A stretch of 64,000 nt of DNA from a bacterium (GCA_043719295.1 JAYSUD010000008.1:8216-72215); one strand, 5' to 3'; shown: positions 6,239 through 27,696, counted from the stretch's first letter. Numbers and translations: made by a program. Notes: generated from the sequence alone by a model not told the origin.

Positions 6239-6261
6239 AGATATCACTTTATACAGTTGAA

Positions 6262-8700: not shown

Positions 8701-8764
8701 TCAAACAACTGTTTGTAATCTGTATATGTATGTAATACAAAACAACCTATTACGGCATACAGTC

Positions 8765-9334
8765 ATGATTAAATCAAAAGTGAAAGTCCAAAAACATGGT
8801 GCAGATTATTTTGAACAATTATGGGAAGAAAGTTGGACCTACATCAAAACCGTAGTTGATGTTGTGCGAGAGCCTGTAGTTATCTTAGATAAAAATCTCT
8901 GTGTTTTGGCAGCAAATGATCCGTTCTATAGCACTTTCCAAGTAGACCAAAAAGAAACAGAAAACACGCTTGTGTACAAACTAGGTAATGGACAGTGGGA
9001 CATTCCCGATTTGCGTCGACTCCTTGAAGATATCCTCCCAAAAAATACTTTTTTCAAAGGTTTTAAAGTGATGCACGAGTTTCCAGCTATCGGACGAAAA
9101 ATCATGATTCTTAATGCACGGCAAATTCATTATCGAGGTGATAGTAGCTCTGAAAAAGTCCCCCCAATTATCCTCCTTGCCATGGAAGACGTAACCGAGA
9201 TGATGGATGTAGCAGAATCGTTTGCAGGACACATAGAACAAGTAGAGAAAAAATTCTTTGAACGAGTTGATGGTTTTGAAACACAGTTGAAAACGCTTCA
9301 AGCTGAACTTGCACAGCTTAAGAGGAAGTCATAA
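8765..9334 (+). CDS. PAS-fold domain protein with a C-terminal coiled coil.
   Basis: PAS-like core VVREPVVILDKNLCVLAANDPFYSTFQV...GNGQWDIPDLRRLLEDIL. The start is uncertain because the ORF overlaps the previous gene; Met31 was chosen. Confidence 0.45.
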   Translation: MIKSKVKVQKHGADYFEQLWEESWTYIKTVVDVVREPVVILDKNLCVLAANDPFYSTFQVDQKETENTLVYKLGNGQWDIPDLRRLLEDILPKNTFFKGFKVMHEFPAIGRKIMILNARQIHYRGDSSSEKVPPIILLAMEDVTEMMDVAESFAGHIEQVEKKFFERVDGFETQLKTLQAELAQLKRKS

Positions 9335-9461
9335 TAAATACTAGTACTACTGTATATTGGCAAAATTAAATTGAAAAAGTTATTGCTGTAACTAAAAAAC
9401 AGAGTTCCGTATGGTTCATTTTTGGGCAGTTTTGTTGTATAGTTATTCTTAACTAGAGATT

Positions 9462-10013
9462 ATGGCAAAACTTGTACCAGAAAACCATCCTGTCTTACAC
9501 GCAATTGCAGAGGAAGTCACCCAAGATGAAATACAAAATGGCTTTGTTACAAAGCTGATTAAAGACATGAAAGGTGCCTTAAAAACCTATAGTGTTGATG
9601 GTTTTACTGCGGTTGCTATTGCAGCACCGCAAATTGGAGTTTCAAAGCGCCTTTTTATTATTGAGGATCAAAGTAAAGACCGCGATTCCCTTCCCTCACT
9701 TATTGCCATTAATCCCAAAATTATTAAGTCCTCTAAGAAAACGCACATCGTTGGAGAAGGTTGTTTATCACTTCCAGACTATTATGGTGAAGTAAAACGT
9801 CATACCAATGTCACTATGCGCGCTTTAGACGAACAAGGGAAACAGTACGAACGTGGCGCTGGAGGCTTATTAGCCCAAATCATCCAACATGAATACGACC
9901 ACCTTGATGGAATTTTATTTACCGACCGTGCAGAAAAAGTTTGGACAAAGAAGGAGTTAGACGCACTAAAAAAGAAAGAAGAAGCTGTGGCAAAAGAAGC
10001 ACACCATGAGTGA
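9462..10013 (+). CDS. def: Peptide deformylase.
   Basis: The three PDF motifs are present: GVSKRLF, EGCLSLP and QHEYDHLDG. Confidence 0.9.
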   Translation: MAKLVPENHPVLHAIAEEVTQDEIQNGFVTKLIKDMKGALKTYSVDGFTAVAIAAPQIGVSKRLFIIEDQSKDRDSLPSLIAINPKIIKSSKKTHIVGEGCLSLPDYYGEVKRHTNVTMRALDEQGKQYERGAGGLLAQIIQHEYDHLDGILFTDRAEKVWTKKELDALKKKEEAVAKEAHHE

Positions 10014-10863
10014 GAAAAAACTAAGAATTGCCTTTTTTGGAACGCCATACGTTGCGCGTGATACGTTCATGAAACTCGTTGCATCAGGTTTTGCACCCGA
10101 AGTTGTTATAACAAACAACGACACCAAACAAGGTCGAGGGCAGACACTCCAAATGTGTGTCACCAAAGTCTGGGCAACAGATGCGAAGATTCCTACCTTC
10201 TCGCCGTCTACAATTGACGATGTTGCAATTGAGGAAATCAAAAAATACAACTGTGATTATGCAGTTGTAGTAGCGTATGGAAAAATACTCCCGCAAGCAC
10301 TTATTGATACCTTCCCTAAGGGAATACTCAACATCCACTATTCCCTCTTACCAAAATACCGCGGTGCATCGCCTGTTGAAAGTGCTTTACTTAATGGAGA
10401 AACGGTAACAGGAGTTACCATACAAAAACTTGTACTTGCTATGGATGCAGGTGACATTATTGCTCAAAAAGAACTCACCATTGGTAAAGATGAAACAGCA
10501 CTACTTCTTAAAGAGCGTCTTATCACACTTGGTACAGAAATGCTTGTTGAAACACTTCCCCTCTTTGAAACAAACGAAGTAACATTCATCTCACAAAATC
10601 ATGAGAAAGCGACGTTTGCAAAGAAAATCAAAAAAGAAGAGCGGGAATTGAAAATTAGTGAAAACTCCCAAGAAAACTGGAATAAATACAGAGCATATGC
10701 TGAATCGCCAGGTACACACTTTTTTGTTCAAAAAAACGGTAAACCTACACGAGTAAAAATTGTTAGCGCTGAACTTACAGACGGAATCTTTACCCCTCTT
10801 CGAGTGATACCCGAAGGAAAGAAAGAAATGGACTTTACAGCATTCTTAAAGAGTTCTACTTAG
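10006..10863 (+). CDS. fmt: Methionyl-tRNA formyltransferase.
   Basis: 285 aa, overlaps def by 8 nt (conserved def-fmt pair). Formyltransferase core NIHYSLLPKYRGASP. Confidence 0.85.
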   Translation: MSEKKLRIAFFGTPYVARDTFMKLVASGFAPEVVITNNDTKQGRGQTLQMCVTKVWATDAKIPTFSPSTIDDVAIEEIKKYNCDYAVVVAYGKILPQALIDTFPKGILNIHYSLLPKYRGASPVESALLNGETVTGVTIQKLVLAMDAGDIIAQKELTIGKDETALLLKERLITLGTEMLVETLPLFETNEVTFISQNHEKATFAKKIKKEERELKISENSQENWNKYRAYAESPGTHFFVQKNGKPTRVKIVSAELTDGIFTPLRVIPEGKKEMDFTAFLKSST

Positions 10864-10864
10864 G

Positions 10865-11230
10865 TTATCTCCCAAAGCGCAACATTTCTTTGATTTTTCT
10901 ACTTCCTTTACGCATGAGGCTTTCACTTTTCTTATGCCGACGGAGTATCTCACTATCAAGCTCCCCTCGTACACGAGCTATTGCTTTTTCAAAAGAATCT
11001 TCCGTTGCTTCGGCCCTGTATAGTTTGCCCTTTAACCACACATTTGCTTCAAAGCGGAATACATTACCATGTTGATGTGGCGCTTCTTTCTCAAATTCAA
11101 CCTCAATTTTAACGTCAGTTGCATCGCCAAAATATTTCTGAAGTGTTCTAAACTTCTCTTCAACTTGATCTTTAAGATGATTTTTTAATTCAGTATTTGT
11201 AGCCTTGTATTTAATAGTTGGAAATGTCAT
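10865..11230 (-). CDS. hpf: Ribosome hibernation promoting factor / RaiA (S30AE family).
   Basis: TIKYKATNTELKNHLKDQVEEKFRTLQKYF...VEFEKE...FRFEANVWLKGK: typical short HPF. Confidence 0.8.
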   Translation of the reverse strand: MTFPTIKYKATNTELKNHLKDQVEEKFRTLQKYFGDATDVKIEVEFEKEAPHQHGNVFRFEANVWLKGKLYRAEATEDSFEKAIARVRGELDSEILRRHKKSESLMRKGSRKIKEMLRFGR

Positions 11231-11326
11231 AGAAATTTTCAATTAAACGATTAAATCCTATATACCGTCTAGAAATAAATTGAGTTTTGAGTGTTCTAAG
11301 AATGACGTAATTTCAAGATGGTATTT

Positions 11327-11635
11327 CTATTGGCAGGTATCACAGACTTCAGGACTTTGGTGGATCCTCAGTCCTCCAAATGAATTGCTAACTTGGGGAA
11401 TGTTACAGTGTTCATTGAGGTACGCAATAATGTCTTGGGATTCATACATTTTTTCCCCACGTTCTGTATCTACTAGATACGGCACCTGCTTCTTTCCACC
11501 CAGTTTTACAAGCTCGTCTATAAGGGCTGGATCAGCAGAAATATCTTTAAGAGTAACTTTAATAGATAACGCCTCAATTTCACCAAGCACCGCTTGGCAA
11601 TAGGGGCAACTGGGACGGTAATAGAGTGTAAGCAT
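11327..11635 (-). CDS. Glutaredoxin-like protein (CPYC active site) with a Cys-containing C-terminal tail.
   Basis: MLTLYYRPSCPYCQAVLGEIE...KKQVPYLVD: glutaredoxin fold. Confidence 0.7.
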   Translation of the reverse strand: MLTLYYRPSCPYCQAVLGEIEALSIKVTLKDISADPALIDELVKLGGKKQVPYLVDTERGEKMYESQDIIAYLNEHCNIPQVSNSFGGLRIHQSPEVCDTCQ

Positions 11636-11788
11636 GATAGATTTACTTATATCTTGTATGTATACAGTATACAACGTTTATTCAAACCTGTCAGACAGTG
11701 CTAAACCATAAACACCATAAGGTTGAAAACCCCACAGTTTTCTGTACAATAGCCCTACTTGAAGTAATTCAAGTATAGATTCTAAAGC

Positions 11789-12116
11789 TCCGGTGTAGCT
11801 CAGCGGTAGAGCAATCGACTGTAACATTGAACAATGTTCAAAATAGCAGCCTTATCGAGAAATTGATATTGCAAACAAGGTGAATTGCTGGAACCCCCAC
11901 GACACAAGTCAGGGCAATCAGCAGCCAAGCTTTTGGAGAAATCCAATTGAAGGTCCAGAGACTATCCCTTCGGGGAGTAGAATGCTCACAAATGCATTCG
12001 AAGCGCCTTGCACCGTCAGTGTAGTAATACAACCGGTGATGATATAGTCCACGCCATACAGTAACGTATGAATAAGTGTAATCGATTGGTCGCAGGTTCG
12101 AATCCTGCCGCCGGAG
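11789..12116 (+). tRNA. tRNA-Asn (anticodon GUU) interrupted by a group I intron in the anticodon loop. No CCA is encoded.
   Basis: Exons tccggtgtagctcagcggtagagcaatcgactgt + taatcgattggtcgcaggttcgaatcctgccgccggag fold into a 72-nt cloverleaf. Acceptor TCCGGTG/CGCCGGA, U8, T-loop TTCGAAT, G73, and a 5-nt variable loop that excludes Tyr. Confidence 0.75.
11823..12078 (+). ncRNA. Group I self-splicing intron (~256 nt) within tRNA-Asn.
   Basis: CCAAGCTTTTGG (P5-like), GTCCAGAGACTA (J6/7-P7) and ATATAGTCC (P7'/J8-7) match the group I consensus. The intron ends in G. Boundaries are good to about 2 nt. Confidence 0.7.
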
Positions 12117-12184: not shown

Positions 12185-12238
12185 GACCTTGCCTGATATC
12201 TTTTTGAGGTACGAAATAAAATAGTGACAAGGTGTACT

Positions 12239-12268
12239 GGTCGTGTAACGACCGAAATTCCTGCCGCC
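12239..12268 (+). repeat. tRNA-flanking module: hairpin with TGTAA loop, then GAAATTCC, then a direct copy of the tRNA 3' strand.
   Basis: ggtcgtgtaacgacc-gaaattcc-tgccgcc. The tail is complementary to 12170-12182. Homologous modules at 58386-58413, 62436-62462 and 63420-63456. Confidence 0.6.
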
Positions 12269-12282
12269 TAAACATCCATATT

Positions 12283-12291
12283 CGTGGTATA
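12283..12291 (+). promoter_or_regulatory. Extended -10 promoter element (TGGTATACT) upstream of the HNH gene.
   Basis: tggtatact lies ~16 nt before the ATG at 12307. Pattern only. Confidence 0.4.
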
Positions 12292-12306
12292 CTAAACAAA
12301 ACATAC

Positions 12307-12636
12307 CACATGACCCGTAAAGAAACACGCACCTACGCCGATCGAGCTGAGTATATGAAACTCGCTGTCATTAAACGTCGCAAAAAAGTGCGTGACATGG
12401 CACTTGAATACAAAGGTGGAGTCTGCCAAATCTGTAGATATAGTAAAAGTAAACGGGCACTCTCCTTTCATCACATCAATCCCAAAACAAAAGAATTTGG
12501 TATTTCATACAGAGGCTTTACTCGATCATGGGACAAGACAAAAGCAGAACTCGATAAATGCATTCTGCTTTGCATGAACTGTCATATGGAGATACACGAT
12601 GGAATTACAAAGTTACCAGAACTTTGCATTACCTGA
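12307..12636 (+). CDS. HNH endonuclease (zinc-finger HNH); likely a homing-type endonuclease tied to the adjacent intron-containing tRNA.
   Basis: MTRKETRTYADRAEY...CQICRY...SFHHINPK...CMNCHMEIHDG: HNH motif with CxxC pairs. Start taken at the internal Met after the promoter-like box. Confidence 0.7.
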   Translation, partial: HMTRKETRTYADRAEYMKLAVIKRRKKVRDMALEYKGGVCQICRYSKSKRALSFHHINPKTKEFGISYRGFTRSWDKTKAELDKCILLCMNCHMEIHDGITKLPELCIT

Positions 12637-12682
12637 ACACACCCCTTAACAATACATAAAAATACTATATACTACTCACTAT

Positions 12683-12817
12683 ATGACACGACAAATTGCA
12701 TTAAGCCCAAACAAGAACACTAAAACACGTCCTTATAAATCACCGAAGCGTTTAGAAGCAAAAAGAGTATTGCTTGCAAAGAAAACTAACAAGACAGGGG
12801 CAAAGAAAGCAAAGTAG
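12683..12817 (+). CDS. Small basic protein (44 aa, MTRQIALSPNKNTKTRPYKSPKRLEAKRVLLAKKTNKTGAKKAK); function unknown.
   Basis: Clean ATG..TAG ORF, pI >11, followed by the terminator at 12836-12861. Confidence 0.35.
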   Translation: MTRQIALSPNKNTKTRPYKSPKRLEAKRVLLAKKTNKTGAKKAK

Positions 12818-12835
12818 TAAGAATGAATAAAAAGT

Positions 12836-12861
12836 AAAAACCACCCACAAGGGTGGTTTTT
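12836..12861 (+). terminator. Rho-independent terminator.
   Basis: aaaaaccacccacaagggtggttttt. Confidence 0.7.
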
Positions 12862-13086
12862 ACTTTTTATTGATTTTCTAGTCTCTACAGTTTTGCTAAG
12901 GCAAGTTTATACGTATTACACCCACTGTCATAAAAGTAACGTACTCACGGCATTAGTATGTGGATAGAGAGCATCAAACATACTCACACACTACCTGCAA
13001 TATGCAGTGTGTATAAACAGGGAAACAAGCAGTTTACAAGCAATACTCCATTATAAAATAAACTATCGATTTAACCCTAAAACAAT

Positions 13087-13623
13087 ATGAAAAAGACAAT
13101 TTTTGCTTTATTCGACAATATTGATGTAGCTAATAATGCCATTAATAAATTACACAACCAATTCAACATTTTAAGTGATGATATTTCATATGTTTACAAA
13201 AATAAAGATGGACAGAAAGTTTCAGGTACAAACGACGATACAGAAGAAAGTACTGCCGCTGAAGGAGCGGTTACAGGTGCGACAACAGGAGGTATTATCG
13301 GTGCAACGGTAGGATTAATAGCTGTTGCTGGGCTACTTGGCCCACTTGGTCCTATTGTGGTTGCAGGACCACTTGCTACTTTTCTCGGTATTACAGGTGC
13401 TACTGGCGCCGTAATTGGAACAGGTATAGCTGGAGCAACCATTGGTGGACTTGTTGGAGCACTTATGTCAATGGGGGTAAGTGAACCGCAGGCACGTAAT
13501 TATGAAACACGCGTGGACGGAGGAGACGTGCTTGTGAGCATCACCGCTGAAAACACTGACGATGTAACTGCAATTTTGCGTGAATTTGATGCAAAAGAAA
13601 TAACGGTAGTTGAGAAAAATTAA
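13087..13623 (+). CDS. General stress protein 17M (YflT-like) with a glycine-zipper membrane segment.
   Basis: N-terminal YflT-like domain, long GxxxG repeats (TGGIIGATVGLIAVAGLLGPLGPIVVAG...), and a C-terminal small domain. Confidence 0.5.
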   Translation: MKKTIFALFDNIDVANNAINKLHNQFNILSDDISYVYKNKDGQKVSGTNDDTEESTAAEGAVTGATTGGIIGATVGLIAVAGLLGPLGPIVVAGPLATFLGITGATGAVIGTGIAGATIGGLVGALMSMGVSEPQARNYETRVDGGDVLVSITAENTDDVTAILREFDAKEITVVEKN

Positions 13624-13819
13624 TTGCAACACAATGAAGAAATACCATGACAAAGCCACTACTCTATAGTGGCTTTGTTAATTTATTTTTTAGGAAAGTT
13701 AATACTGAAAGGAATTGAAGTGCGGTAGAGAAGCAAATTCAGCAGTTGCATAGTTCATTCATGAAGAATAAAAACTTTCTGATATTCAATATGAGTCATA
13801 ACAAACCAACTATAAAACT

Positions 13820-14065
13820 TTACTTCGAAACTTTTTTTATTGGGTAGTCTTTATTTTCATGTGCAGCTTCCATATGCTCAATAGCAGCATCAATGTGCAC
13901 CTCAGCGGCTTCCTTGTGCACTTCAGCTGCTTCAATATGTATATCAGAAACAGTTTTGTGAGCTCCTTCCACTTTTCTCTCTACTTTCTCAGCTTTTATC
14001 TCAGAGACTTCAACGTCTTTATTATCAATTACTGGGCAAGACTGTTTTTTTGTATCGTTTGTCAT
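13820..14065 (-). CDS. Small His/Glu-rich protein with EAAEVH repeats.
   Basis: 81 aa: HIEAAEVHKEAAEVHIDAAIEHMEAAHE. Possible metal-binding function. Confidence 0.35.
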   Translation of the reverse strand: MTNDTKKQSCPVIDNKDVEVSEIKAEKVERKVEGAHKTVSDIHIEAAEVHKEAAEVHIDAAIEHMEAAHENKDYPIKKVSK

Positions 14066-14254
14066 AGTATTTGTTTAAAACTTTCATTAAAAATGTCCCT
14101 CCTGGGCTTGTTAGCACAAAAAACTATTTCCTATATGAGGGATAGTATCAAGCCGAACAGAACGAGGATCTATTACATACAAGAAAAACTACTATAAAAA
14201 TCTATGTTTACATCTCAGATTCGCATAAATATAAAATCTTTAATGTTTTTACAC

Positions 14255-14509
14255 TCAAGCCCGATGTGAACAACCTGCCCAACAACAGGGTCTTCGCTTC
14301 CCTTTTACAAGGTTCTCAGACATTATTCTTATTCGACGCTCTCTGGTTTCTTGTTGCTTTGCTGAAGTAATCCAACAAAGCCATTCATTGCGCGCAAGTG
14401 GAGTTATGTCTTCCCATACAGCCAATACAGCCTTTTTTGAAATAAGAAGTTTTCGCACATCAACCGGAACGTTGTGCACTACACCATTGGATATTCCTGC
14501 TTTACTCAT
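14255..14509 (-). CDS. YdeI/OmpD-associated (OmdA-like, bacteriocin-protection) family protein.
   Basis: LAVWEDITPLARNEWLCWITSAKQQETRERRIRIMSENL matches the OmdA-domain pattern (...REY..WI..AK..ETR..RI...). Confidence 0.45.
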   Translation of the reverse strand: MSKAGISNGVVHNVPVDVRKLLISKKAVLAVWEDITPLARNEWLCWITSAKQQETRERRIRIMSENLVKGKRRPCCWAGCSHRA

Positions 14510-14545
14510 AGCTACAGTATATCAAAACAATTGACCTGAGTATTT

Positions 14546-15076
14546 TTACCTTGTTTGCTGCTTAAGTTCTAGCAACTGTTGCAAAAGTCCCACTAACTCA
14601 GTGAGTAACTTTATCCGTAACTGTAGTTGCTGAATATTGGAACTTGCGACTTGTGGCAATACCGCAGGAATACACTCTTTCCATGGTGCTGTGCCTTGTT
14701 GTGTATATACATGCCGTGCATATCCCAAATTCCCTTCAACTGTCTTTAAGTCAAATCCGAGCTTTGCTGCTCCGTTACTATGGATACTTTCAAAGAATTG
14801 AAAAATCCCAACCATACCACCACCTGCTCCACCCCTTAAAACAGCACCACTGTCAGTAAACTGTCGAAACTTGGATTCACATTTTGCAATTTCTATCATC
14901 ACGGGAATATCGGCAAAGTACTCTCGGACCTGCTTTTCAATTGACTGTGCTGTTTGGGTTGTTGTAGCCAAACTCGAAGTAGCAACTACCTTTTTTTCAG
15001 CTGCAAAAGTAGCTTGTACCTGCACACAAAAAATACCAATAAAAAGCAACACTCCCCCTCCAATAAATTTATACAT
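14546..15076 (-). CDS. Secreted transglycosylase-like (Rpf-type) domain protein with a C-terminal coiled coil.
   Basis: Signal peptide MYKFIGGGVLLFIGIFCVQVQA, then IAKCESKFRQF...GGMVGIFQF...GTAPWKEC (the Rpf/transglycosylase-like CES...FQF...W pattern). Start taken at Met39 of the 15190 ORF. Confidence 0.55.
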   Translation of the reverse strand: MYKFIGGGVLLFIGIFCVQVQATFAAEKKVVATSSLATTTQTAQSIEKQVREYFADIPVMIEIAKCESKFRQFTDSGAVLRGGAGGGMVGIFQFFESIHSNGAAKLGFDLKTVEGNLGYARHVYTQQGTAPWKECIPAVLPQVASSNIQQLQLRIKLLTELVGLLQQLLELKQQTR

Positions 15077-15227
15077 AGTCCTCAGTATACCATTGTACGA
15101 ATCATGACTTGATACAGTAATATGTTTTTTACTATAGAAAATGGAGGCATGTGTAAGTGCCTCCATCATACCGTTTACACTCTCCGTCACTCCTTATCTA
15201 AAGGTAGAGAGTTATTTCAAATTTGGA

Positions 15228-15758
15228 TCAGGCCGCTTCAAGAAGACTGCCTTCGGCGGACGAGCCCAGCAAGGTCGCCATTGTCGCTTTGAGACCCTTA
15301 GATATAAAGATGCGATACGGAACCTTTGCTTCGATAGGAACCCGGTTGAGCACGCCGATGAAAAATTCGGCCAATTCCTTTGACTTATCGATATAGGCCG
15401 AGTAGTCCTGATAACGTGCTTTGTACACCTGCGCCAGTTCGTCGTCAAAGACTGACCACGTCTGTGCCGGTGTCATACTTCTGATTTCAGCAGATGTAAG
15501 CCCAGCCGACCGCAAAACAGCATTCACTTGACGTTGCCCAGATCCAACTGGCAGCACGGACTTAGCGTAATTGACACCACCTTTCATGACTGCGACAATC
15601 CAAGCAACTTGGCCCCAGCCACAACCACGAAAGCTGTAACCCTTACCAGTTTTGTCGATGCTTTCAACCCATTGGAATGGGACGAACTCACCAGCTTCAG
15701 CGGCTTGCCGCAAACCTTGGCTTGTGGCGTTCAAATGATTACGATTCCAGCTCATCAT
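15228..15758 (-). CDS. Hypothetical protein in a GC-rich segment, probably foreign.
   Basis: 176 aa with no recognised motif. Local GC is well above the window average. Confidence 0.4.
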   Translation of the reverse strand: MMSWNRNHLNATSQGLRQAAEAGEFVPFQWVESIDKTGKGYSFRGCGWGQVAWIVAVMKGGVNYAKSVLPVGSGQRQVNAVLRSAGLTSAEIRSMTPAQTWSVFDDELAQVYKARYQDYSAYIDKSKELAEFFIGVLNRVPIEAKVPYRIFISKGLKATMATLLGSSAEGSLLEAA

Positions 15759-15911
15759 CTAGCTCCAATCTGTTAATCTAAGAATCAGCGGATGCTGACC
15801 CTACATCCAAGTTTACACATTAAAATGTCTCTGTAAAGAAAATTTAGCTTTTAATCTTTTTTTAGAATTATCTACAATTACCCTGTTATACTTACCACAT
15901 ACAATACGCAT

Positions 15912-16449
15912 ATGGATTTTATTACTTCTCTTTCACTCTCACCATATGCCGTACTCACCCAAGTAATCGGTTTTCTTGCTTTTTTTTGTAGGAATATATG
16001 CGTTCACAAACAAAGACGACAAAAAACTACGTATTTGGCAAGCGGCTCAGTGTTTTTTACTTTCACTCCACTTTTTTCTTCTTGGCGCTCAGTCAGGAGC
16101 AGCAATAACCTTGCTAGCAGGTATACGTAATCTGATTTCGCTTCATAAACACACTACTCATGTAGGTGTTATATTTCTTGTACTTTACGTAGTTATTGGA
16201 ATAATTCGCTACGAAGTTCCACTTGATATTCTCCCTGTTTGCTCAGCACTCTTAGGCACTACTGCAATCTTTTACCTCTCTGGTATCAAAATGCGCATAT
16301 TCCTGATGGCAGGAACCTCGCTCTGGATAATTCATAACGCGCTCGTTTTTTCTATCGGCCCGTTTTTTATGGAATTCCTTATTCTCGGAGTTACACTCCA
16401 CACGACATACCAATTATGGAAAACCTCCCGTCTTAATCGTCATACTTGA
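15912..16449 (+). pseudogene. YgjV-like inner-membrane protein split by a frameshift in a T8 homopolymer.
   Basis: ORF 15912-16130 (MDFITSLSLSPYAVLTQVIGFLAFF...) and ORF 15976-16449 are adjacent frames of one membrane protein. They join if the T8 run at 15980-15987 were T7. Confidence 0.5.
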
Positions 16450-16525
16450 TTTTTTCATTGTATACGCGCACTATGGGCTCTGAAGACCTTGATCCTTCTA
16501 TAACACACAAGCGGGAGAACAGACC

Positions 16526-17662
16526 ATGTGTGCACATATTACCCCAACGAAGCCATGCGTTGCCAAAACGGTTATGAGTGTTGCAAGCATGACTCATCCT
16601 CATGCAAAAACAATCACGAATCGTGCAATCCCTCTTTCGGTGGATTTTGTACAAAAAATACTTTCCCTAACTCACTTTAGCTTTAGTGGTCGCAAACCAA
16701 GAAAGCAAAAAAACAAACGTGGAGAGAAGCGACCTACTGATATGGATCTCGCGTCCTTCTTGATCGGACTTTTGCAAAAGCCAACGATATTGGAATTGCC
16801 AGAGTACACGACTGCACTTCCGCGAACTGTCATTGCAGGCGAACGTCACCTAGACACCCGCCGGTATGGGCAACTCCTTAACCTTGTCTCACACAAAAGT
16901 CGACTTTCTTTTGGTGTCCGCATTCATGACGCAACTATAAAGCGACGTTCGTCTCTTGAAGAAGACAGGCTTGGAGCGCCACGAACCTTTATGATCATCA
17001 ATTACGAAGGCAAGTGGCACAGCGGATGGAAAGGTACATCATGGGACTTCAGAAAGGCCGAGCGGGGTTTCCGTGAACGGTATGACTTAAGTGCTGACAT
17101 ACACCATCTTGGATATAAGTATTTTGTACACCTTAACCGTCGACACAGCATTTTTAGCTACTCCCACTTGCTCTTGAAGCTTGTGTGGCAACGCATCGAA
17201 GATGAATTGGCATTCTACCGAGAGGAGCTGAAGCGTCTTGGCAATTACAACACCAATCCAAATAGCGATTACTTTAATGTGCTTGAAGTTGGTGCAAGCA
17301 CAAGTGTCATGGTTCCAAGCTTTGTCATGGCGCTTGAAGGCTATTCTTATACTGGTGAATATTCGCCAGTTGAAGCAAGTGAAGAAGGCTACAAAAAAGC
17401 CCAAGCACATGTTGATTTTCTTCAGTACCAACTTCGTCCACGCGTGCAATTTGTCGTTCGTGCAAACGAAGCCGCGTTTTATCATTACGGCAAACCTCAA
17501 GGGTATGTCGCAGGATGGATACGTGGTGTCTATTGGGAAAAAACTGGTGTGAATGATCAGTATCAGCAAGAGGCAACGTTTGCTTTCTCTGATTCGTTCA
17601 TCATGCGCTACAAATGCGATACCGTCTCGCAAGTGGTAGCACCTTCATACACAGGGGTCTAG
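16526..17662 (+). CDS. Hypothetical protein with elevated GC; no recognisable domain; start uncertain (possibly Met at 16742).
   Basis: 378-aa ORF with Trp/Tyr-rich composition, followed by a GC-rich terminator. Looks horizontally acquired. Confidence 0.4.
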   Translation: MCAHITPTKPCVAKTVMSVASMTHPHAKTITNRAIPLSVDFVQKILSLTHFSFSGRKPRKQKNKRGEKRPTDMDLASFLIGLLQKPTILELPEYTTALPRTVIAGERHLDTRRYGQLLNLVSHKSRLSFGVRIHDATIKRRSSLEEDRLGAPRTFMIINYEGKWHSGWKGTSWDFRKAERGFRERYDLSADIHHLGYKYFVHLNRRHSIFSYSHLLLKLVWQRIEDELAFYREELKRLGNYNTNPNSDYFNVLEVGASTSVMVPSFVMALEGYSYTGEYSPVEASEEGYKKAQAHVDFLQYQLRPRVQFVVRANEAAFYHYGKPQGYVAGWIRGVYWEKTGVNDQYQQEATFAFSDSFIMRYKCDTVSQVVAPSYTGV

Positions 17663-17672
17663 ATTGACCCCA

Positions 17673-17702
17673 AAAGCCGGCGTCACAACGCCGGCTTTTT
17701 TC
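17673..17702 (+). terminator. Rho-independent terminator.
   Basis: aaagccggcgtcacaacgccggcttttttt. Confidence 0.75.
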
Positions 17703-17740
17703 TGTAACAGAGTACAAATCAACTTTTTACTACGTTGCCT

Positions 17741-18208
17741 CTACCGCGTCAAACAATACGCGACACTTCCTGCAATGGGAGCTTCGGCATGTTTTGGTGC
17801 ACAGACGGTAAACCGTCCGAGCGTATCTTTTAATACGGTATAGAGTGTGTCGCCTGCTGTACCTCCATCGGGATCAAACGGTATTGCACTTGGGATGTAT
17901 GTTGGTACTAAACAAGAGAAATCGATGTTAGAACCCGCGATACCAATGTTGGTTGCAGTTCCAGAAACTGTTGTTCCGACACAGGTAAAAGTGCCTTTAT
18001 TATCTGCAATATTTTGTCCAATAGCATTAAGGAGTGTAGAGACGTTAGACTCGCGTTGTGTGTTTCGTGCTTGCGCAAATTGTCGCGAAGGGTTAATTGC
18101 AACAACGACAATGGAGGCCAGAATTGCAATTACGCCAATAACGATCAGTAGCTCTATGAGTGTAAAACCTTGGTCACGACGAACTTTTTTAATTGATGAG
18201 GTGGTCAT
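17741..18208 (-). CDS. Type IV pilin-like protein (prepilin N-terminal cleavage/methylation domain).
   Basis: Start at MTTSSIKKVRRDQ-GFTLIELLIVIGVIAILASIVV: canonical class III signal with Gly-1, Phe+1 and Glu+5. Confidence 0.8.
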   Translation of the reverse strand: MTTSSIKKVRRDQGFTLIELLIVIGVIAILASIVVVAINPSRQFAQARNTQRESNVSTLLNAIGQNIADNKGTFTCVGTTVSGTATNIGIAGSNIDFSCLVPTYIPSAIPFDPDGGTAGDTLYTVLKDTLGRFTVCAPKHAEAPIAGSVAYCLTR

Positions 18209-18315
18209 ACAAATTATGTGATGAACGTTACAACATTTAATAAGGACAGTGCGTTTATGGATAGCAGTATAAGTATATGCCTGTATAGAAAAAAAGAATT
18301 TTTTCTTGTGCACAT

Positions 18316-18804
18316 CTAAGGTAGTGACGGGAGTTCTTTCCAAGAAATAAGTTCACTCTCAAAAGAAGGTAATGGTGATAAAGGTGTATTAAGGGGAGGC
18401 GTTGCGATTTCATCAATTCGTATATCATGCATATCAAACTGCAGTTCAAGATTAGTAACAGAGTCACGAACCTTCCCTTGTACACGAAGTGTTACAAAAC
18501 CTGCTGTTGGAGTGTGCAGAGCTACTGGAAATACATAACACGTTCCCACGGCACTCGAGGTTGTGGCACCACCTTGGAATTCTGGATTTGCTATAAGCTC
18601 ACCAAGTGCCCTCTGTCCACACCCTTTCGCAAGTGTCTCTGACTGTTCTTTTGCTTCAACACCCAAGAGAGTGAATCGTGCTCGTGATCCAAACGTAGTA
18701 ATACTCACCGTCAGCACAAGCAAGACAGCGCCAATAACAATAGTTGCCATCAGTGCAATGTACCCATCAGAAACTTCCGGTGATTGTATATGTAAGTGTC
18801 GCAT
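18316..18804 (-). CDS. Pilus-associated protein (minor pilin or pseudopilin-like) with an N-terminal hydrophobic segment.
   Basis: 162 aa, SDGYIALMATIVIGAVLLVLTV... It overlaps both neighbours, so it lies in the same operon as the pilin and the giant protein. Confidence 0.4.
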   Translation of the reverse strand: MRHLHIQSPEVSDGYIALMATIVIGAVLLVLTVSITTFGSRARFTLLGVEAKEQSETLAKGCGQRALGELIANPEFQGGATTSSAVGTCYVFPVALHTPTAGFVTLRVQGKVRDSVTNLELQFDMHDIRIDEIATPPLNTPLSPLPSFESELISWKELPSLP

Positions 18805-21800
18805 TATAATTTCCAGCTTCAGTTAAGCTTTCTACATTTGCAATATAACGAAGGTCATACACAGAGACAGTCTCATCTCCTACTCCCGTTGCAACTAAAT
18901 CAGGAAACGACGCGCTGTCAAAGGCCCACAATAGTGAATTATAGGGTGACTGAGGAATACCATTACCTGAGGAGGTTGCAATTCGCATACCAAATTGCTC
19001 AGTACCGAGCAATGTTGCTGAAGGAGTGGCACCAATAGGAAGAAGCGTTGTATCAACGCACGCAGTACACGTGAGTGTATTTCCTGAAAGAGTGATGGTA
19101 TATCCGCCTGGCGCATTGGTAATTGCTGAAATAGTGTGAGCAACAGTTGTTGATGTTGTATTTCCAAGAGTATCTCCTGTTGCATATTTAGTAGTCACTG
19201 AAGATAATCCACCAAAACCAACAGTTGTATCTGAAATAGCCATAGTTATGTATTGTTCAGGTCTTTTTTTAAGATACCGCACACTCATCATTGCAAAATC
19301 CCACGCACGCGTGTCCCCTGCGGCTAATCGAGTTGAGGCTGAGCTACGAAGACGCAAGTTCATCAAATTATTAACCGTATCTACAAAATCATCAGGACCA
19401 TTTTGTTGTTCTACTATTCTAAAGGTATCGAAATACCCATACGTTGTTGCAGCGTTTACGTCAGTTCCGGGGGTACTTTGCCACCCTGCTCCTGTTGCCT
19501 CTCCACCTAAACCTGAAGTCCCTGCATAGTTTTTAAGCTGTACGTCACTTGTGATTGTGGTCACATTCGAACGAAACTTTGCTGCATAGTGGATACCCGT
19601 AATTGCTGTTGAAGATGGAACGGTAATAGGAAATGAAATGTTTGCCGAATGTGCGTACTCTGCATTTACCGCATCGTCGTCGTTATCAAGCGCATAGTAT
19701 GTGGAAGGATATTCAATGGCACTTGTTTGTTGCCAAGTTGCCGTTGATGAAGTTGCCGTAACTGCTTCACTCATTGTGCGCGTATTGGCACAATTAGCTG
19801 CTGTTCCCGTACCCCACGAAATTTCACATAAAGCACTGTTACTGTTTACTGATCCGAGCATTAAGTACATACGATCAAACTGAAGATTGTACACAACTCC
19901 TGGAGCATTAGTTAAAAAGCGAACGCGTACCTCCCCTGTTGAGGAAATGTGGTTAGCCATATTAAATCCACCTATAGAAGTATCGTTGAAGGTAAAGGCC
20001 ATATCTGCATCAGTTGCACAAGTAGCCCCGCCTATAGTCGTTGAGGCGTGTTGCGTCCAGGTTGTATTTTGAAAGTCATAGAGATATATGCCGAACGTCA
20101 AAGCAACGTTTGAGCGACAGATTTCAGCTGAGAATAAAATGGTATTCATGCCAGTGTATGTTTGCACATTTTTAAATGAGTAGTAGAAATCGGCTGCAGT
20201 TGAAATTGCAGTCATAGGGACCGTCATTTTGGTTGCATCACTTCCCGTGACGGTAGTATAGATACCTCCAAGTGTGTCAGAGATGAAGTTTGTCGTCACG
20301 CCGGCTGACGTTGTTGCAAAACCTGCGGGTTCGTAAATTGGATCGATAGCGACCTCTACTTGCGCGAAGTCAATACGGTGTTCAACGGTGTTGTTAACTG
20401 TTGAGTATGAACGGAGAATAATACGTCCACTTGTTGACGAAGCGAAGTTTGAAAGTGGTGTTGCAATGATTGTTCCAGGAGACGTCACACGCGTAGAGAA
20501 GTATCCGTCATATATTTCATAGACGCGTGTTATGTCAGTGGTATCAGTAAGGTTTGCGTCTTGTGGCTCGAGGTTGCGCCAACCACCTCCGGTACAACCT
20601 GCAGTTGCTGCGTTATCAACACCAGTATTGTCTACCCAATCACAAATTTGGTGTTGGTAGTTACTTCCAGTAGTAATATTGCCTGACTCTATTGTCAGCA
20701 AAAGCTTATTTGCACTATAGAGTTCAACATTGTCAAAATACAGCTGTGCGTCAAAACCAGTTGTTGTCCGTCTAAACGACCAATAGTTAGAATCGTTACC
20801 GAGTGTGCCTTTATAGTCTCCGGCGTTTACAAAAGAAGAAGACGAAGCGGTTCCAACTACAAGTGAACCACCTGTTGCAATATACTGACTCCGCAACGTT
20901 ACCCTACTTTGTTCATTGATAAAACGAACACTCATCATCGCAAAATCAATATCGCGAGTATCGCCTGACGCAACTCGAGTAGAGGCTGAGGTACGGATTC
21001 GCATGTTCATCACGTTGTTCTTAGTATCAACAAAATCATCAGAACCGTTTTGTTGTTCTACTATTCTAAATGAATCGAAATATCCATAGGTTGTAGATAA
21101 GTTAATATCGGCCCCTGGAGTACTTTGCCAGAATGACCCTGCTGCTTCGCCCGATACTCCTGAAGTCCCCGCGAAGTTCTTAATTTGAATGTCGTTGGTG
21201 ATAGTTGTCACGTTCGACCGGTGTTTTACTGCATAGTGAATACCCGTAATAGAGGTAGTTGAAGCAAGCGTAATTGGAAATGACAAGTTTGAAGAGTATG
21301 CATACTCAGCGTTGACCGCATCATCGTCATTATCAAGTGGATAGTATGTTGACGGATACTCAATGGCACTTGTTTGTTGCCACGTTGCGGTTGTCGGTGT
21401 GTCAGTAATTCCCTCTGCCATAGTGCGCGTATTTGAGCAATTGGCTGCCGTTCCCGTACCCCACGAAATTTCACACAAAGAACTATCAGTATTAACTGAT
21501 CCGAGCATCAAGTACAGTTGATCGAACTGCAAGTTATAGACGACTCCAGGGCCATTGGTTAAAAAACGCACACGTATTTCACCTGTAGAGGAAATATGGT
21601 CTTCCATATTAAAACCACTAACTGATGTATCGTTAAAGGTAAATACCATGTCTCTGTCAGTTGCACAGGTACTTGCACCAATAGTTGTTGATGCATGCTG
21701 CGTCCATGAAGTATTTTGAAAATCATACACATATATTCCAAACGTCAGCGCAGTGTTTGAGCGACAAATTTCTCCTGAGAACAAAATCGTATTCATCCCC

Positions 21801-22699
21801 GTATACGTTTTCACATTTTTAAATGAAAAGTAGAAGTCTGCTGGGGTTGAAACTGCAGTCATGGGCACAGTTAGTTTGTTAGCATCACTTGCCGTTAACA
21901 GGGTGTAGGTAGGAGGCCCAACCAAGTCAGAGATAAAGTTTGTCGTTACACCCGCTGACGTTGTTGCAAAGCCTGCGGGTTGATAGACCGGGTCAACAGC
22001 AACTTCTACCTGTGCGAAGTCAATACGATGCTCAACGGTGTTGTTAACTGTTGAGTACGAACGAAGAATAAATCGACTATTGTTTGAAGCATTGATAAAA
22101 TTTGACAACGGAGTACTTACGACAATTCCAGGCGACGTCACTCGTGTTGAAAAATAACCATCGTAAATTTCATAGACCCGAGTGTTGTCGGTTGTATCAA
22201 CAAAGTTTGTCCGTCTTGGTTGGAGTGTTCGCCATCCGCCTCCAGTACATTGTGCATCAACCGCGTTATCAACCCCTGTAGTTGAGACAAAGTCACAGAT
22301 TTGATGTACGTAGTTACTTCCTGTTGTGATGTTCGTTGATTCAATAGTGATAAGTATTTTATTGGCACTGTAGAGTTCTACATTGTCAAAATACAGTTGT
22401 GCATCAAAGCCAGTTGTAGTACGTCTAAACGACCAATAGTTAGAATCGTTACCAAGTGTTCCTTTATAATCGCCCGCGTTAACAAAAGATGAGGACGATG
22501 CGGTTCCGACAACAAGTAAACTTCCCGTTGCCCGATACTGTCCTGTTGCAAGTGCTGTTTCTGGAAGTAATGAATCGGCCGTTTGAGTACCTGACCCCAA
22601 ATCAAAAAAACTAAGTCCTCCAAAACCAACAAAAAGTGCCATAAGAAAAAAGAAAGTTCCTATAGACCACTGTACTTTTTTTTCAGAGGATATACTCAT
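18767..22699 (-). CDS. Giant (1310 aa) surface or pilus-associated adhesin-like protein made of two ~550-aa tandem repeat units.
   Basis: N-terminal signal-anchor. The blocks SLLVVGTASSSSFVNAGDYKGTLGNDSNYWSFRRTTTGFDAQLYFDNVELYSANK... and ...ILRSYSTVNNTVEHRIDFAQVEV... occur twice in the same order. Thr/Ser/Asn-rich beta-type composition. Confidence 0.7.
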   Translation of the reverse strand: MSISSEKKVQWSIGTFFFLMALFVGFGGLSFFDLGSGTQTADSLLPETALATGQYRATGSLLVVGTASSSSFVNAGDYKGTLGNDSNYWSFRRTTTGFDAQLYFDNVELYSANKILITIESTNITTGSNYVHQICDFVSTTGVDNAVDAQCTGGGWRTLQPRRTNFVDTTDNTRVYEIYDGYFSTRVTSPGIVVSTPLSNFINASNNSRFILRSYSTVNNTVEHRIDFAQVEVAVDPVYQPAGFATTSAGVTTNFISDLVGPPTYTLLTASDANKLTVPMTAVSTPADFYFSFKNVKTYTGMNTILFSGEICRSNTALTFGIYVYDFQNTSWTQHASTTIGASTCATDRDMVFTFNDTSVSGFNMEDHISSTGEIRVRFLTNGPGVVYNLQFDQLYLMLGSVNTDSSLCEISWGTGTAANCSNTRTMAEGITDTPTTATWQQTSAIEYPSTYYPLDNDDDAVNAEYAYSSNLSFPITLASTTSITGIHYAVKHRSNVTTITNDIQIKNFAGTSGVSGEAAGSFWQSTPGADINLSTTYGYFDSFRIVEQQNGSDDFVDTKNNVMNMRIRTSASTRVASGDTRDIDFAMMSVRFINEQSRVTLRSQYIATGGSLVVGTASSSSFVNAGDYKGTLGNDSNYWSFRRTTTGFDAQLYFDNVELYSANKLLLTIESGNITTGSNYQHQICDWVDNTGVDNAATAGCTGGGWRNLEPQDANLTDTTDITRVYEIYDGYFSTRVTSPGTIIATPLSNFASSTSGRIILRSYSTVNNTVEHRIDFAQVEVAIDPIYEPAGFATTSAGVTTNFISDTLGGIYTTVTGSDATKMTVPMTAISTAADFYYSFKNVQTYTGMNTILFSAEICRSNVALTFGIYLYDFQNTTWTQHASTTIGGATCATDADMAFTFNDTSIGGFNMANHISSTGEVRVRFLTNAPGVVYNLQFDRMYLMLGSVNSNSALCEISWGTGTAANCANTRTMSEAVTATSSTATWQQTSAIEYPSTYYALDNDDDAVNAEYAHSANISFPITVPSSTAITGIHYAAKFRSNVTTITSDVQLKNYAGTSGLGGEATGAGWQSTPGTDVNAATTYGYFDTFRIVEQQNGPDDFVDTVNNLMNLRLRSSASTRLAAGDTRAWDFAMMSVRYLKKRPEQYITMAISDTTVGFGGLSSVTTKYATGDTLGNTTSTTVAHTISAITNAPGGYTITLSGNTLTCTACVDTTLLPIGATPSATLLGTEQFGMRIATSSGNGIPQSPYNSLLWAFDSASFPDLVATGVGDETVSVYDLRYIANVESLTEAGNYNATLTYTITGSF
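19050..22540 (-). repeat. ~1.65-kb tandem duplication (2 units, ~70-75% nucleotide identity) inside the giant CDS.
   Basis: cactcatcatcgcaaaatc at ~20935 matches cactcatcattgcaaaatc at ~19274. gtaccccacgaaatttcaca(c/t)aaag occurs at ~21463 and ~19812. Period ~1.65 kb. Confidence 0.75.
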
Positions 22700-24255
22700 A
22701 TACGCATTCTTTCAGGTACAAAATCAATTTTGATTGTACTTGTATCGACACTAACCTCATATTCCCCTGTTTGGAGTTCTATAATATTCTCTTGTCTACT
22801 ATTAGTGTTAAGTGTCTGCGAAAATAACGATTTACTCACAATATCAAAGCCCATCACTGTATCACTTTGTGCTGTTGTCCAAAACAAAACTCCTGCTTTA
22901 AATTCAAGAATTGGATTTTTCATCATGACTGTTTCATCGGTAATTTTCTCAAAACTGCGGACGGTACCTGAGGCCATTTCTTGTAACCAGAGCGTCTGAA
23001 AACCTGAAGCGTCAGCAACTACTGTAGCAAAACTTGTTTGTGTCAGTGGTTTGAGACTGATAACCGTGCCGTCAATGGTAAAGATGTGGTACGAAACATA
23101 CTCTTGACCCTTAAAGATGATACGGAGTTCAAGTGCATGTTCTCCTACGTCAAATACACCTTGGGTAAAGGTAACTTGTAGCATACCAACTCCATCGTCA
23201 ACAAATTCTATCGGAGCTTTAGTTCCATCAACCAATGCAAAAGATGTAAGCACCACAGGGTTCGTTATTGCAATAATTTCTACTCCATCTTCTTCTGTTA
23301 CTACTGGAGAAAGCGCGATACTGACAGCTTCTATTTGATCATCCACAACAACATCACTACTTCCTTCTGAAGGATCGGTAGAAACTTGAGGGAGAGCATC
23401 AACTGGTATATCTACATCAATAGTTTCTTGGGTTCCCGAAGCTACTTCTTGAGGTTGCTCTACTACTTCAGATAGTTCTGTACTTGTTGCTTCTACATCT
23501 GAATTTTCTGGAGATACAACTTGCTCTGGTTCAGGTTCTGGTTTCGATTCAGATTCAGATTCAGAAACAACTGCAGGTGGAAGCTCCTGTCCTTCTGCTG
23601 TGGGAATGAGAAAATCAACTACATTTGAGAACGTTTCAGTCACGACATCAACCACAGCTTCAACAACACTCCCTTGATACGCATCAACAATAGCCTCCCC
23701 AATAGTATCAACAACCGTCTCTATAAACGTCGACAAAACTGTCCCCGTGGCCTGCTCTGCAGCTGTATACGAAAAAGTAAACGAGGGTATTTCATTAATT
23801 GCAAAGTTCATCTTTTCTGATCCAAGAATAAACGGAAGATCAACATTTGAAGTAGAAGAGGCCCTAGTGCGTTCAATAAGTGAATCCACAACAATAACTG
23901 GTTCAATTATTGGAGACCCAAGTGACTCATCCTCTTTGCTTGCGCTCTCACTTGTAGTTGAATTCTGAATATCTTCTTCGAACACAGGTGCCAAGATTTC
24001 ACCCTCAATAGGTGAAGAAGGCTCTATGGGCCCAATTAGCGGTAGAGTATCTCCTTCAGCATGATCACCTCCCTTACTGTCTGTTACTTCTATTTCTTGT
24101 TGTAAAGGCAGAGCAACTTCGGGTTCTGTAACCAGCACTTCACCTTGTTGTGCAAATGCAAAGGTATGCGGAATAACCGTTTCAACTACCAGTAGAAAAG
24201 CCAACAATACCTGCCCAATTTTGTACCTATATCCCATTGTTGTATCAGTATACAA
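22696..24255 (-). CDS. Secreted acidic protein (519 aa), first gene of the pilus/adhesin operon.
   Basis: Signal peptide, a SESESESKPEPEPEQ acidic linker and a C-terminal beta-rich region. Its stop overlaps the giant CDS start. Confidence 0.5.
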   Translation of the reverse strand: MYTDTTMGYRYKIGQVLLAFLLVVETVIPHTFAFAQQGEVLVTEPEVALPLQQEIEVTDSKGGDHAEGDTLPLIGPIEPSSPIEGEILAPVFEEDIQNSTTSESASKEDESLGSPIIEPVIVVDSLIERTRASSTSNVDLPFILGSEKMNFAINEIPSFTFSYTAAEQATGTVLSTFIETVVDTIGEAIVDAYQGSVVEAVVDVVTETFSNVVDFLIPTAEGQELPPAVVSESESESKPEPEPEQVVSPENSDVEATSTELSEVVEQPQEVASGTQETIDVDIPVDALPQVSTDPSEGSSDVVVDDQIEAVSIALSPVVTEEDGVEIIAITNPVVLTSFALVDGTKAPIEFVDDGVGMLQVTFTQGVFDVGEHALELRIIFKGQEYVSYHIFTIDGTVISLKPLTQTSFATVVADASGFQTLWLQEMASGTVRSFEKITDETVMMKNPILEFKAGVLFWTTAQSDTVMGFDIVSKSLFSQTLNTNSRQENIIELQTGEYEVSVDTSTIKIDFVPERMRI

Positions 24256-24290
24256 GAGAGGAGAAGCTAAAAACGTAACTTACTCACTAA

Positions 24291-27324: not shown

Positions 27325-27696
27325 TCACACTGCTTGTTTTTTCTTCTTTGGCTTCGGTTTTGGTAATGAAGCAGAGAGTAACTGTAGAATTTCTGACAAA
27401 TTTTTAATCGAACGTATCTGTTCCTCTTCAACAACGTAATGTAATTTTGCACCAGTATAGGGAGAATCTTTTTCGCACATACTTTCAAGTTCAGAACTTG
27501 AAGGTACAATTTTTACATACAACAAATCATCACAGATAAGCGCCACAACTTTCCCGTCACAATACAAAGCATACTCCCCAAACATCGCTCTTGCTGTAAA
27601 AATGTGTGGTTTACGAGACCCCACATCGAAGACACCACCTTGTTGCCCTTCAAGAGTTTCAAGAATATGCGCAACAGTTTCTTTGTGGGTACTCAT
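27325..27696 (-). CDS. TfoX N-terminal domain protein.
   Basis: HILETLEG...ARAMFGEYALYCDGKVVALICDDLLYVKI matches the TfoX_N consensus. Confidence 0.65.
   Translation of the reverse strand: MSTHKETVAHILETLEGQQGGVFDVGSRKPHIFTARAMFGEYALYCDGKVVALICDDLLYVKIVPSSSELESMCEKDSPYTGAKLHYVVEEEQIRSIKNLSEILQLLSASLPKPKPKKKKQAV

Follow-up and report, generated by a model that had tools for sequence, protein, structure and literature searches.

Pam pili are filaments specific to the Candidate Phyla Radiation (CPR), described in Ca. Mycosynbacter amalyticus (Troman et al., bioRxiv 2026, doi 10.64898/2026.03.03.709456). According to the same study, the system includes the pilins PamA, PamB, and PamE, the tip pilin PamT, the chaperones PamC and PamD, which are anchored in the membrane, resemble PapD/FimC, and take part in assembly, and the anchor PamR. 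Proteins of the Pam pilin family were shown to polymerise by cryo-electron microscopy (cryo-EM), their C-terminal domains were likened to chaperone-usher pilins, PamT was described as a single-domain pilin predicted at the filament tip, and ATP-synthase genes were reported in pam neighbourhoods. How the Pam filament recognises the host was stated as unexplained. Here, we studied four minus-strand genes located at positions 17741-24255 of a 64,000-nucleotide (nt) stretch of bacterial DNA (GCA_043719295.1, JAYSUD010000008.1:8216-72215; hereafter, the window, with positions counted from its first letter). The largest of them encodes a protein of 1310 amino acids (aa) that we consider, with rather better than even confidence, to be a Pam-pilus tip adhesin sitting here without its operon.

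In the chaperone-usher tip adhesins FimH, PapG, and CsuE, as in PamT, the pilin domain is an acceptor, and the protein brings no donor strand. The 1310-aa protein is predicted to follow the same design, with an N-terminal receptor-binding part and a C-terminal acceptor-only pilin domain. However, it has no detectable sequence homology to the chaperone-usher adhesins, its binding part is about seven times larger and duplicated, and the host cell is here a monoderm without usher. Another system to be considered is that of the WxL/Csc clusters of Firmicutes, which encode small WxL proteins, large WxL proteins with N-terminal binding domains, and WxLIP proteins (DUF916-DUF3324-transmembrane helix); one strand of WxLIP is predicted to enter the WxL domain, and WxL proteins are believed to be binders of peptidoglycan rather than polymerising subunits (PMC9772566, PMC10599100). 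Neither WxL nor DUF916 occurs in the text of the Pam preprint (doi 10.64898/2026.03.03.709456).

The minus strand of 17741-24255 contains four intact open reading frames (ORFs), which in transcription order encode the 519-aa, the 1310-aa, and the 162-aa proteins and the pilin. The features of the locus are the following:

22696-24255, minus strand: ORF of the 519-aa acidic secreted protein; probable true start at ATG 24237.
18767-22699, minus strand: ORF of the 1310-aa putative adhesin, with an N-terminal hydrophobic signal/anchor, two tandem 545-aa modules, and a C-terminal Pam-pilin domain.
20909-22540, minus strand: unit A of the 1310-aa protein (aa 54-597), with 79% aa and 76% nt identity to unit B.
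19250-20887, minus strand: unit B of the 1310-aa protein (aa 605-1150), modelled as three jelly-roll beta-sandwiches resembling carbohydrate-binding modules (CBMs) or galactose-binding domains.
18770-19249, minus strand: C-terminal Pam-pilin domain of about 160 aa (aa 1151-1310), immunoglobulin-like (Ig-like), NCBIfam NF058581.
18316-18804, minus strand: ORF of the 162-aa minor-pilin-like protein, the first 13 codons of which fall, in a different frame, inside the adhesin gene's 3' end.
17741-18208, minus strand: gene of the type IV pilin (155 aa), the product of which has a 14-aa leader and carries GFTLIELLIV; the mechanically called ORF (200 aa) reaches TTG 18343.
17676-17695, minus strand: intrinsic terminator hairpin, GCCGGCG-TTGTGA-CGCCGGC followed by TTTT (RNAfold -20.4 kcal/mol).
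18766-24276, no strand assigned: 5.5-kb segment missing in the closest relative, comprising exactly the 519-aa and 1310-aa genes (blastn against locus L012, with the same junction in L014).

The 519-aa and 1310-aa genes overlap by ATGA, and the 1310-aa and 162-aa genes overlap by 38 nt. The original prediction, made from the sequence of the window, that all four genes overlap start to stop is thus correct at these two junctions; the 162-aa gene and the pilin overlap only if the upstream TTG is used. ATG 18208 gives MTTSSIKKVRRDQG followed by FTLIELLIV and a product of 155 aa, the same form annotated in every relative, and leaves a spacer of about 107 nt after the 162-aa gene, which is also found in the relatives; it is likely the true pilin start. 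The strong terminator hairpin ends the transcription unit after the pilin and, given its A-run flank, may act in both directions.

The C-terminal domain of the 1310-aa protein is what links it to Pam pili. Analysed alone against NF058581 (“CPR_Pam_pilin_C, Pam pilus system pilin subunit”; NCBIfam release 20, cut-off 55 bits), it scored 57.0 bits (E 2.2e-15), above the cut-off, and it is a member of this Pam pilin C-terminal family. All 28 homologous C-terminal domains matched the same model, and 27 of the 28 also matched the PamT model. Furthermore, aa 1151-1310 are homologous to the C-terminal half of secreted proteins of about 355 aa that adjoin the orthologues (E 1e-28 to 1e-34); the 355-aa neighbour in L004 reached 83 bits on NF058581 and matches PamT as well. 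The profile of the domain found nothing among PDB sequences and nothing in Pfam. The AlphaFold2 (AF2) model of the domain had a pLDDT of 95, and its best PDB folds in Foldseek were Csu, CfaB, HdaB, the PapG pilin domain, FimG, and FimA; the fold would resemble Csu, Pap, Fim, and CFA/I subunits, weakly (TM-score at most 0.48). Compared to the Pam pilins, two tandem units amounting to about 1100 aa of CBM-like modules replace the nine-strand N-terminal domain of PamA/B and the linker. Upstream of the C-terminal domain, the 1310-aa protein showed nothing recognisable as an N-terminal domain or linker of PamA/B type, which is compatible with an acceptor-only subunit.

The remaining part of the protein was modelled as an array of sugar-binding-like folds. 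The AF2 model of unit B with the C-terminus (713 aa, alignment of 56 sequences) was all-beta, with pLDDT 91 and pTM 0.79, and each unit was modelled as three jelly-roll sandwiches. Together with a Thr, Ser, and Asn content of 31% in the 1310-aa protein, this agrees with the Thr/Ser/Asn-rich beta composition that had been predicted. In the Foldseek search of the unit against PDB, the matches (E 1e-11 to 1e-5) were reelin repeats, Cry protoxin domains, GH101 CBMs, a CBM22 tandem, SGBP-B, and MAM domains, with low TM-scores because the targets are multi-domain. Against viral models, the unit matched tail and receptor-binding proteins with CenC-like CBMs (E 1e-14 to 1e-7). By fold, the unit model is thus similar to phage tail fibre and receptor-binding proteins that carry CenC-type CBM arrays; unlike these, the window protein has no phage context and ends with a pilin domain, and the matches to them are multi-domain with low TM-scores. 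Among the invariant residues are a Cys pair, a GGWR motif, and a DNDDD loop, which is acidic and may be a metal site. The units probably bind host-surface glycans, perhaps with Ca2+.

We compared the locus with 18 related loci, six of which (L001-L006) came from exact-protein look-ups and twelve (L015-L026) from a scan of GTDB species genomes. The common gene order is acidic partner, two-unit protein, one or more Pam-type pilins, Ig-like transmembrane protein, dockerin/Big_6 protein, and cohesin-like transmembrane protein, and it is kept in L001, L002, L004, L005, L006, L015, L016, L017, and L019. The Pam-type pilins of these loci are 327-392 aa long, or are represented by a 210-aa PamT-like protein, and the Ig-like, chaperone-like proteins (about 304-384 aa) have a C-terminal transmembrane helix. 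In L001, ATP-synthase genes are present within 8 kb. No prepilin ORF was found within 10 kb in any of the 18 loci, four of which translate poorly under table 11 (probably due to UGA recoding) and three of which are short contigs. In L021, L022, L023, and L024, the homologues break into ORFs of 70-90 aa under table 11; these are likely UGA-recoded CPR lineages (code 25 or 4), though labelled Saccharibacteria or Paceibacterota.

The 519-aa protein is acidic, as originally described (pI 4.05, 17% Asp plus Glu), with a hydrophobic N-terminus. A homologue immediately precedes the big gene in L001, L002, L004, L005, L006, L015, L016, L017, L020, and L021. It diverges fast, with 36-40% aa identity where the adhesin keeps 74-79%; it matched no family in Pfam or NCBIfam, and the homologue search with this low-complexity sequence returned only two matches. 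Judged from gene order, it is a conserved upstream partner of the adhesin, to which it is putatively coupled in translation.

Taken together, these observations are coherent with a locus that would combine, as a mosaic, two surface-filament systems unrelated to each other. The 519-aa and 1310-aa genes would form the front of a Pam-type cluster of CPR, encoding a pilus assembled by donor-strand exchange. The 1310-aa protein would be exported and display two modules of three CBM-like jelly-rolls each, which probably bind glycans of the host surface, while its C-terminal domain would take up the linker strand from the first Pam pilin, placing six binding domains at the distal tip of the filament; the 519-aa acidic protein would be a dedicated partner of the adhesin. 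The 162-aa and pilin genes would instead be the tail of a compact type IV filament operon, joined to the adhesin pair by a recent lineage-specific rearrangement, so that the two pairs would now be co-transcribed though they are not conserved partners. Lastly, the two-module design would be ancient and repeatedly re-homogenised, with an old last homogenisation in this genome. In this scheme we infer the tip position, the glycan binding, the donor-strand acceptance, and the presence of Pam pilins and chaperones elsewhere in the genome; donor-strand acceptance and tip location are proposed by likeness to PamT, FimH, PapG, and CsuE.

Several observations weigh against a Pam-tip adhesin. When searched within the whole 1310-aa protein, NF058581 scored 50.5 bits (E 2.2e-13), just under the cut-off of 55. 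The matches to chaperone-usher folds were weak (E 0.017-0.3, TM-score 0.36-0.48), none of them at E<=0.001. Among the four window proteins, Pfam recognised only N_methyl, in the pilin, and no CBM family matched the units. The hydrophobic N-terminal segment of the 1310-aa protein could be an uncleaved anchor that holds the protein on the cell. The Pam preprint describes no such adhesin, only a “tail fibre-like protein” nearby (doi 10.64898/2026.03.03.709456); the two-unit adhesin may be that protein. In the 64 kb of the window, tblastn and NCBIfam revealed no Pam pilin, chaperone-like gene, or other Pam family match, and in this genome the adhesin may be without a filament to sit on. Compared to the described Pam system, the adhesin family belongs mainly to Parcubacteria/Paceibacterota-type and other CPR lineages, and the window does not contain the rest of a pam operon.

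Among the alternatives, the one that survives best is a WxL-type envelope complex, in which the C-terminal domain would dock onto a membrane-anchored, WxLIP-like Ig protein, in the manner of the large WxL proteins of Firmicutes, and the CBM array would work as a cell-bound adhesin or glycan-capture device. The Ig-like transmembrane proteins of the orthologous loci indeed matched Pfam WxLIP_PGBD (cut-off 27.3 bits), two of them above the gathering cut-off (34.6 bits in L003 and 28.5 in L017) and five more below it, one of which also matches WxLIP_HBD. The WxLIP-matching proteins are located as follows:

L003: 6843-7997.
L017: 5354-6502.
L019: 14931-15947 and 17059-18030.
L001: 13257-14171.
L015: 13297-14253.
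L005: 13401-14357.

These chaperone-like proteins are tied together by BLAST matches, with E values as low as 3e-7, as well as by hhalign (E 3e-5). The cluster grammar is also the same as in Firmicutes, since a small protein of a given domain, a large protein with that domain at its C-terminus and binding domains at its N-terminus, and a transmembrane Ig protein mirror the published WxL clusters, and an N-terminal membrane anchor of the 1310-aa protein would be in line with a cell-bound complex. On the other hand, the C-terminal domain itself has no Pfam WxL match and lacks a conserved pair of Trp-x-Leu motifs, and it matches instead the model of Pam pilins, a family shown by cryo-EM to polymerise. 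A bona fide WxL domain was rejected: none of the 28 aligned C-terminal domains matched Pfam WxL at E<=1, and the Trp positions are not conserved. We thus consider a WxL-type complex unlikely, at a level that still deserves attention. Because the partner proteins repeatedly match WxLIP, the comparison suggests that the WxL clusters found at the surface of Firmicutes are evolutionarily related to Pam-type clusters, and the Pam-tip and WxL-complex readings may be compatible if the two systems are indeed related. A broader proposal, that the adhesin family is the missing host-recognition subunit of Pam pili with a conversion-matched pair of triple-CBM modules and, at the same time, that Pam and WxL/WxLIP are branches of one ancient monoderm donor-strand system in which WxLIP corresponds to PamC/D, is advanced tentatively, as a possibility that we would not expect to hold in full.

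A second alternative is the original prediction, in which the 1310-aa protein would serve as tip adhesin or as sheath on a type IV pilus built by the adjacent pilin and minor pilin. The pilin part of it is solid. The 155-aa protein matched Pfam N_methyl (E=2.2e-8, 33.8 bits, cut-off 21.2) and NCBIfam TIGR02532 (33.3 bits, cut-off 16.3), and its class III signal reads RRDQG directly followed by FTLIELLIV, with Glu at +5; by these matches, it is a genuine type IV prepilin. The GFTLIELLIV signal on which the prediction relied is canonical, but the pilin is the last gene transcribed and not the first. The 162-aa protein has only 13 relatives. Its family shows an invariant G14 before YIALMATIIIGAVLLV, no Glu at +5 (Met or Leu instead), two invariant Cys, and a conserved SWKELPxLP end, and the protein had no N_methyl match in Pfam or NCBIfam. 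In the three loci with enough flank out of three (L007, L009, and L011), its homologue is the penultimate gene of the order T2SSE, T2SSF, pilin, ~505-aa protein, pilin, X, and 155-aa pilin, where X is the homologue. The invariant Gly before the hydrophobic helix and this position in T2SSE-T2SSF-pilin operons bear out the view of a minor-pilin-like protein. The compact, Com-like type IV filament operons of CPR relatives thus end with the genes of the 162-aa protein and the pilin; unlike there, the two genes stand apart from those of the ATPase and the platform both in the window and in the nearest relative, and lie downstream of thioredoxin, DsbD, and redoxin.

The nearest relatives explain how the two pairs of genes may have met. 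In L012, L013, and L014 (82-88% nt identity), the order is thioredoxin, DsbD, redoxin, X, pilin, and Amidase_3, with no adhesin genes. By blastn, L012 647-2797 corresponds to window 26490-24277 and L012 3044-4067 to window 18765-17742, and L014 has the same junction; between the redoxin and 162-aa genes, L012 has a 246-nt unrelated spacer where the window has 5.5 kb (18766-24276). Since L012 carries redoxin, 162-aa gene, and pilin without the adhesin pair, this segment is an indel. Homology to L012 restarts at the Gly-1 codon of the 162-aa gene (window 18765), directly after the adhesin stop codon, and for this reason the 13-residue leader of the 162-aa protein (MRHLHIQSPEVSD), which is read from the last codons of the adhesin in another frame, appears to come from the adhesin gene. 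The homology then ends at the pilin stop codon. Amidase_3, which follows the pilin in L012, L013, and L007, is absent from the window, and because the sequence downstream of the pilin also differs, more than one event took place. The place of the Amidase_3 gene of the relatives is taken by a 378-aa ORF (16526-17662, plus strand) convergent with the pilin, which marks a second rearrangement breakpoint; it has no Pfam or NCBIfam match and sits in a locally GC-richer stretch (0.45 vs ~0.40). In L006, a more distant relative from a metagenome, the adhesin cluster lies downstream of the same thioredoxin/redoxin genes, a layout that favours a deletion in L012 rather than an insertion in the window; the sample of L006 also contains a contig, L007, with the full type IV operon. 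In the comparison with L012, at a dS of ~0.45, dN/dS was 0.10 for the pilin and 0.16 for the mature 162-aa protein, and both are under purifying selection.

A type IV carrier could be argued from the adjacency of the genes, which are probably co-transcribed, with the 162-aa ORF starting inside the adhesin gene and a single terminator after the pilin, from the absence of Glu at +5 in the 162-aa protein, as in minor pilins located at the tip, and from the purifying selection on both pilin genes. However, the adhesin has no prepilin signal (no N_methyl match), its C-terminal domain is that of another family of pili, and the adjacency is lineage-specific: it is seen in 0/18 related loci, the nearest relative keeps the 162-aa gene and the pilin without the adhesin, and in other relatives the two are part of a T2SSE/T2SSF operon that is complete and encodes a ~505-aa protein of its own. 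A conserved pilin-adhesin operon was rejected on the same 0/18 loci and on L012. The search for assembly genes that the prediction called for was negative within the window: T2SSE and T2SSF (the pilus ATPase and platform) and a prepilin peptidase are not present in the 64 kb, and T2SSE/T2SSF occur beside the homologues in relatives. Thus, a pilus tip adhesin remains plausible, while its assignment to a type IV pilus has become improbable, and a variant in which the adhesin was rewired to the type IV pilus in this lineage, through the 162-aa minor pilin, appears slightly more improbable still.

The internal duplication of the putative Pam-tip adhesin was analysed in more depth. As predicted, the 1310-aa protein contains two long repeats, here delimited as two 545-aa units. 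Nucleotides 160-1775 of the gene align with nucleotides 1813-3422 at 76.1% identity across 1618 nt, with a repeat period of 1647-1653 nt; at the protein level, 430/544 residues are identical (79%), with 2 gaps. On 545 aligned codons, the Nei-Gojobori method gave pS 0.63, dS 1.36, dN 0.14, and dN/dS 0.10, and the longest exact nt run common to the two units is 32 nt. Because of this dS and of the short shared run, the duplication, or its last homogenisation, is old in the window gene; both units are under strong purifying selection, and they have diverged too far to recombine efficiently. The recent duplication and recombination hotspot that had been proposed is thus rejected for the window by dS, dN/dS, and the longest match, while at the family level the idea is sustained by orthologues with units 99.6-100% identical in nt. 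An assembly artefact behind the two-unit structure or the gene juxtaposition is hardly credible: short-read assembly of tandem 1.65-kb repeats is difficult, and single-unit forms of ~770 aa are closest to two-unit forms with ~99% identical units, as a repeat collapse would yield, but here collapse or expansion is implausible because the units differ at 24% of nt with no shared run above 32 nt, window 12235-20798 (unit B, C-terminal domain, 162-aa gene, pilin, and 378-aa gene) recurs at 100% identity in L027, an independent Logan assembly, and two units are found in 134/171 family members, complete genomes included.

At the family level, a search among 5.8 billion proteins returned 139 relatives, the carriers of which are named Parcubacteria, Doudna-, Dojka-, Falkow-, Nomura-, and Wolfebacteria, with a few Omnitrophota. 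We consider the adhesin family to be small and essentially CPR-restricted, since an exhaustive phmmer search with one unit against 1.84 billion representatives at 50% identity found only 129 proteins at E<=1e-3. The census with the hidden Markov model of the unit, on 171 proteins of at least 700 aa, counted two units in 134, one in 33, four in 1, and three in 0. Within one protein, the identity between units ranged from 37% to 99.8% aa, and was at least 98% in 11/86 proteins. The nearest relative of a unit was its own partner in 34/86 proteins; in 45/86, unit A was nearest to the A of another protein and unit B to the B of another protein. The units are 100% nt-identical in L004 (1609 nt; gene 4551-8459) and L015 (1637 nt; gene 8087-12061) and 99.6% nt-identical in L001 (gene 8001-11924), despite these proteins being only 57-75% identical to the window protein, which indicates a very recent homogenisation of units in separate lineages. 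The nt identity between units is 76-82% in the window, L005, and L017, and in the complete genomes L002 and L003 the units are barely alignable at the nt level. As unit identities form a continuum across the family, this pattern indicates that the two-unit architecture is ancient and strongly preferred, and was repeatedly homogenised, whether through gene conversion or through the loss of a unit and its re-duplication. The single-unit forms (~770 aa) are typically the nearest relatives of proteins with near-identical units, and may be real one-unit alleles or collapsed assemblies. In some family members of 1450-2135 aa (P0082, P0090, P0092, P0095, P0100, P0101, P0110, P0120, P0093, and P0022), both units are fused to a further domain of enzymatic or toxin-like type, which may be a C25 cysteine peptidase, a ribosome-inactivating protein (PF00161), an M23 peptidase, or a peptidoglycan-binding domain, and in several of them each unit is split by an insertion of ~400 aa.

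Other features were observed in the window. A group I intron (11828-12071; Rfam RF00028, 80.4 bits) interrupts the anticodon loop of a tRNA gene (11787-12113, plus strand), which ARAGORN missed on the raw sequence and called as tRNA-Thr(UGU) once the exons were joined (~11787-11820 and ~12077-12113); just downstream, an HNH-like ORF (12232-12636, plus strand) may encode a homing endonuclease. A T4SS_pilin-family protein (PF18895; 62467-62859, minus strand), DprA (50164-51207, plus strand), and a TfoX_N protein (27325-27696, minus strand) are related to competence or conjugation. A second uncharacterised cluster (5051-9334, plus strand), probably surface-located, encodes proteins of 384, 812, and 219 aa, the second of which carries a DUF11 repeat domain; none of the three matched a Pam family model.

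In this window, gene adjacency is misleading, as two truncated operons of different filament systems appear to be fused. The strict two-module design, combined with episodic homogenisation, would make the adhesin family a clean natural case of concerted evolution inside one gene, and many CPR lineages carry the family, for which 1.8 billion representatives yielded about 120 clusters at 50% identity. If true, the kinship between Pam and WxL would give mechanistic insight in both directions, including into the poorly understood WxL complexes of gut Firmicutes. The Pam pilus was described only in 2026, and a protein that would combine a Pam pilin domain with six CBM-like domains is a testable candidate for its host recognition.

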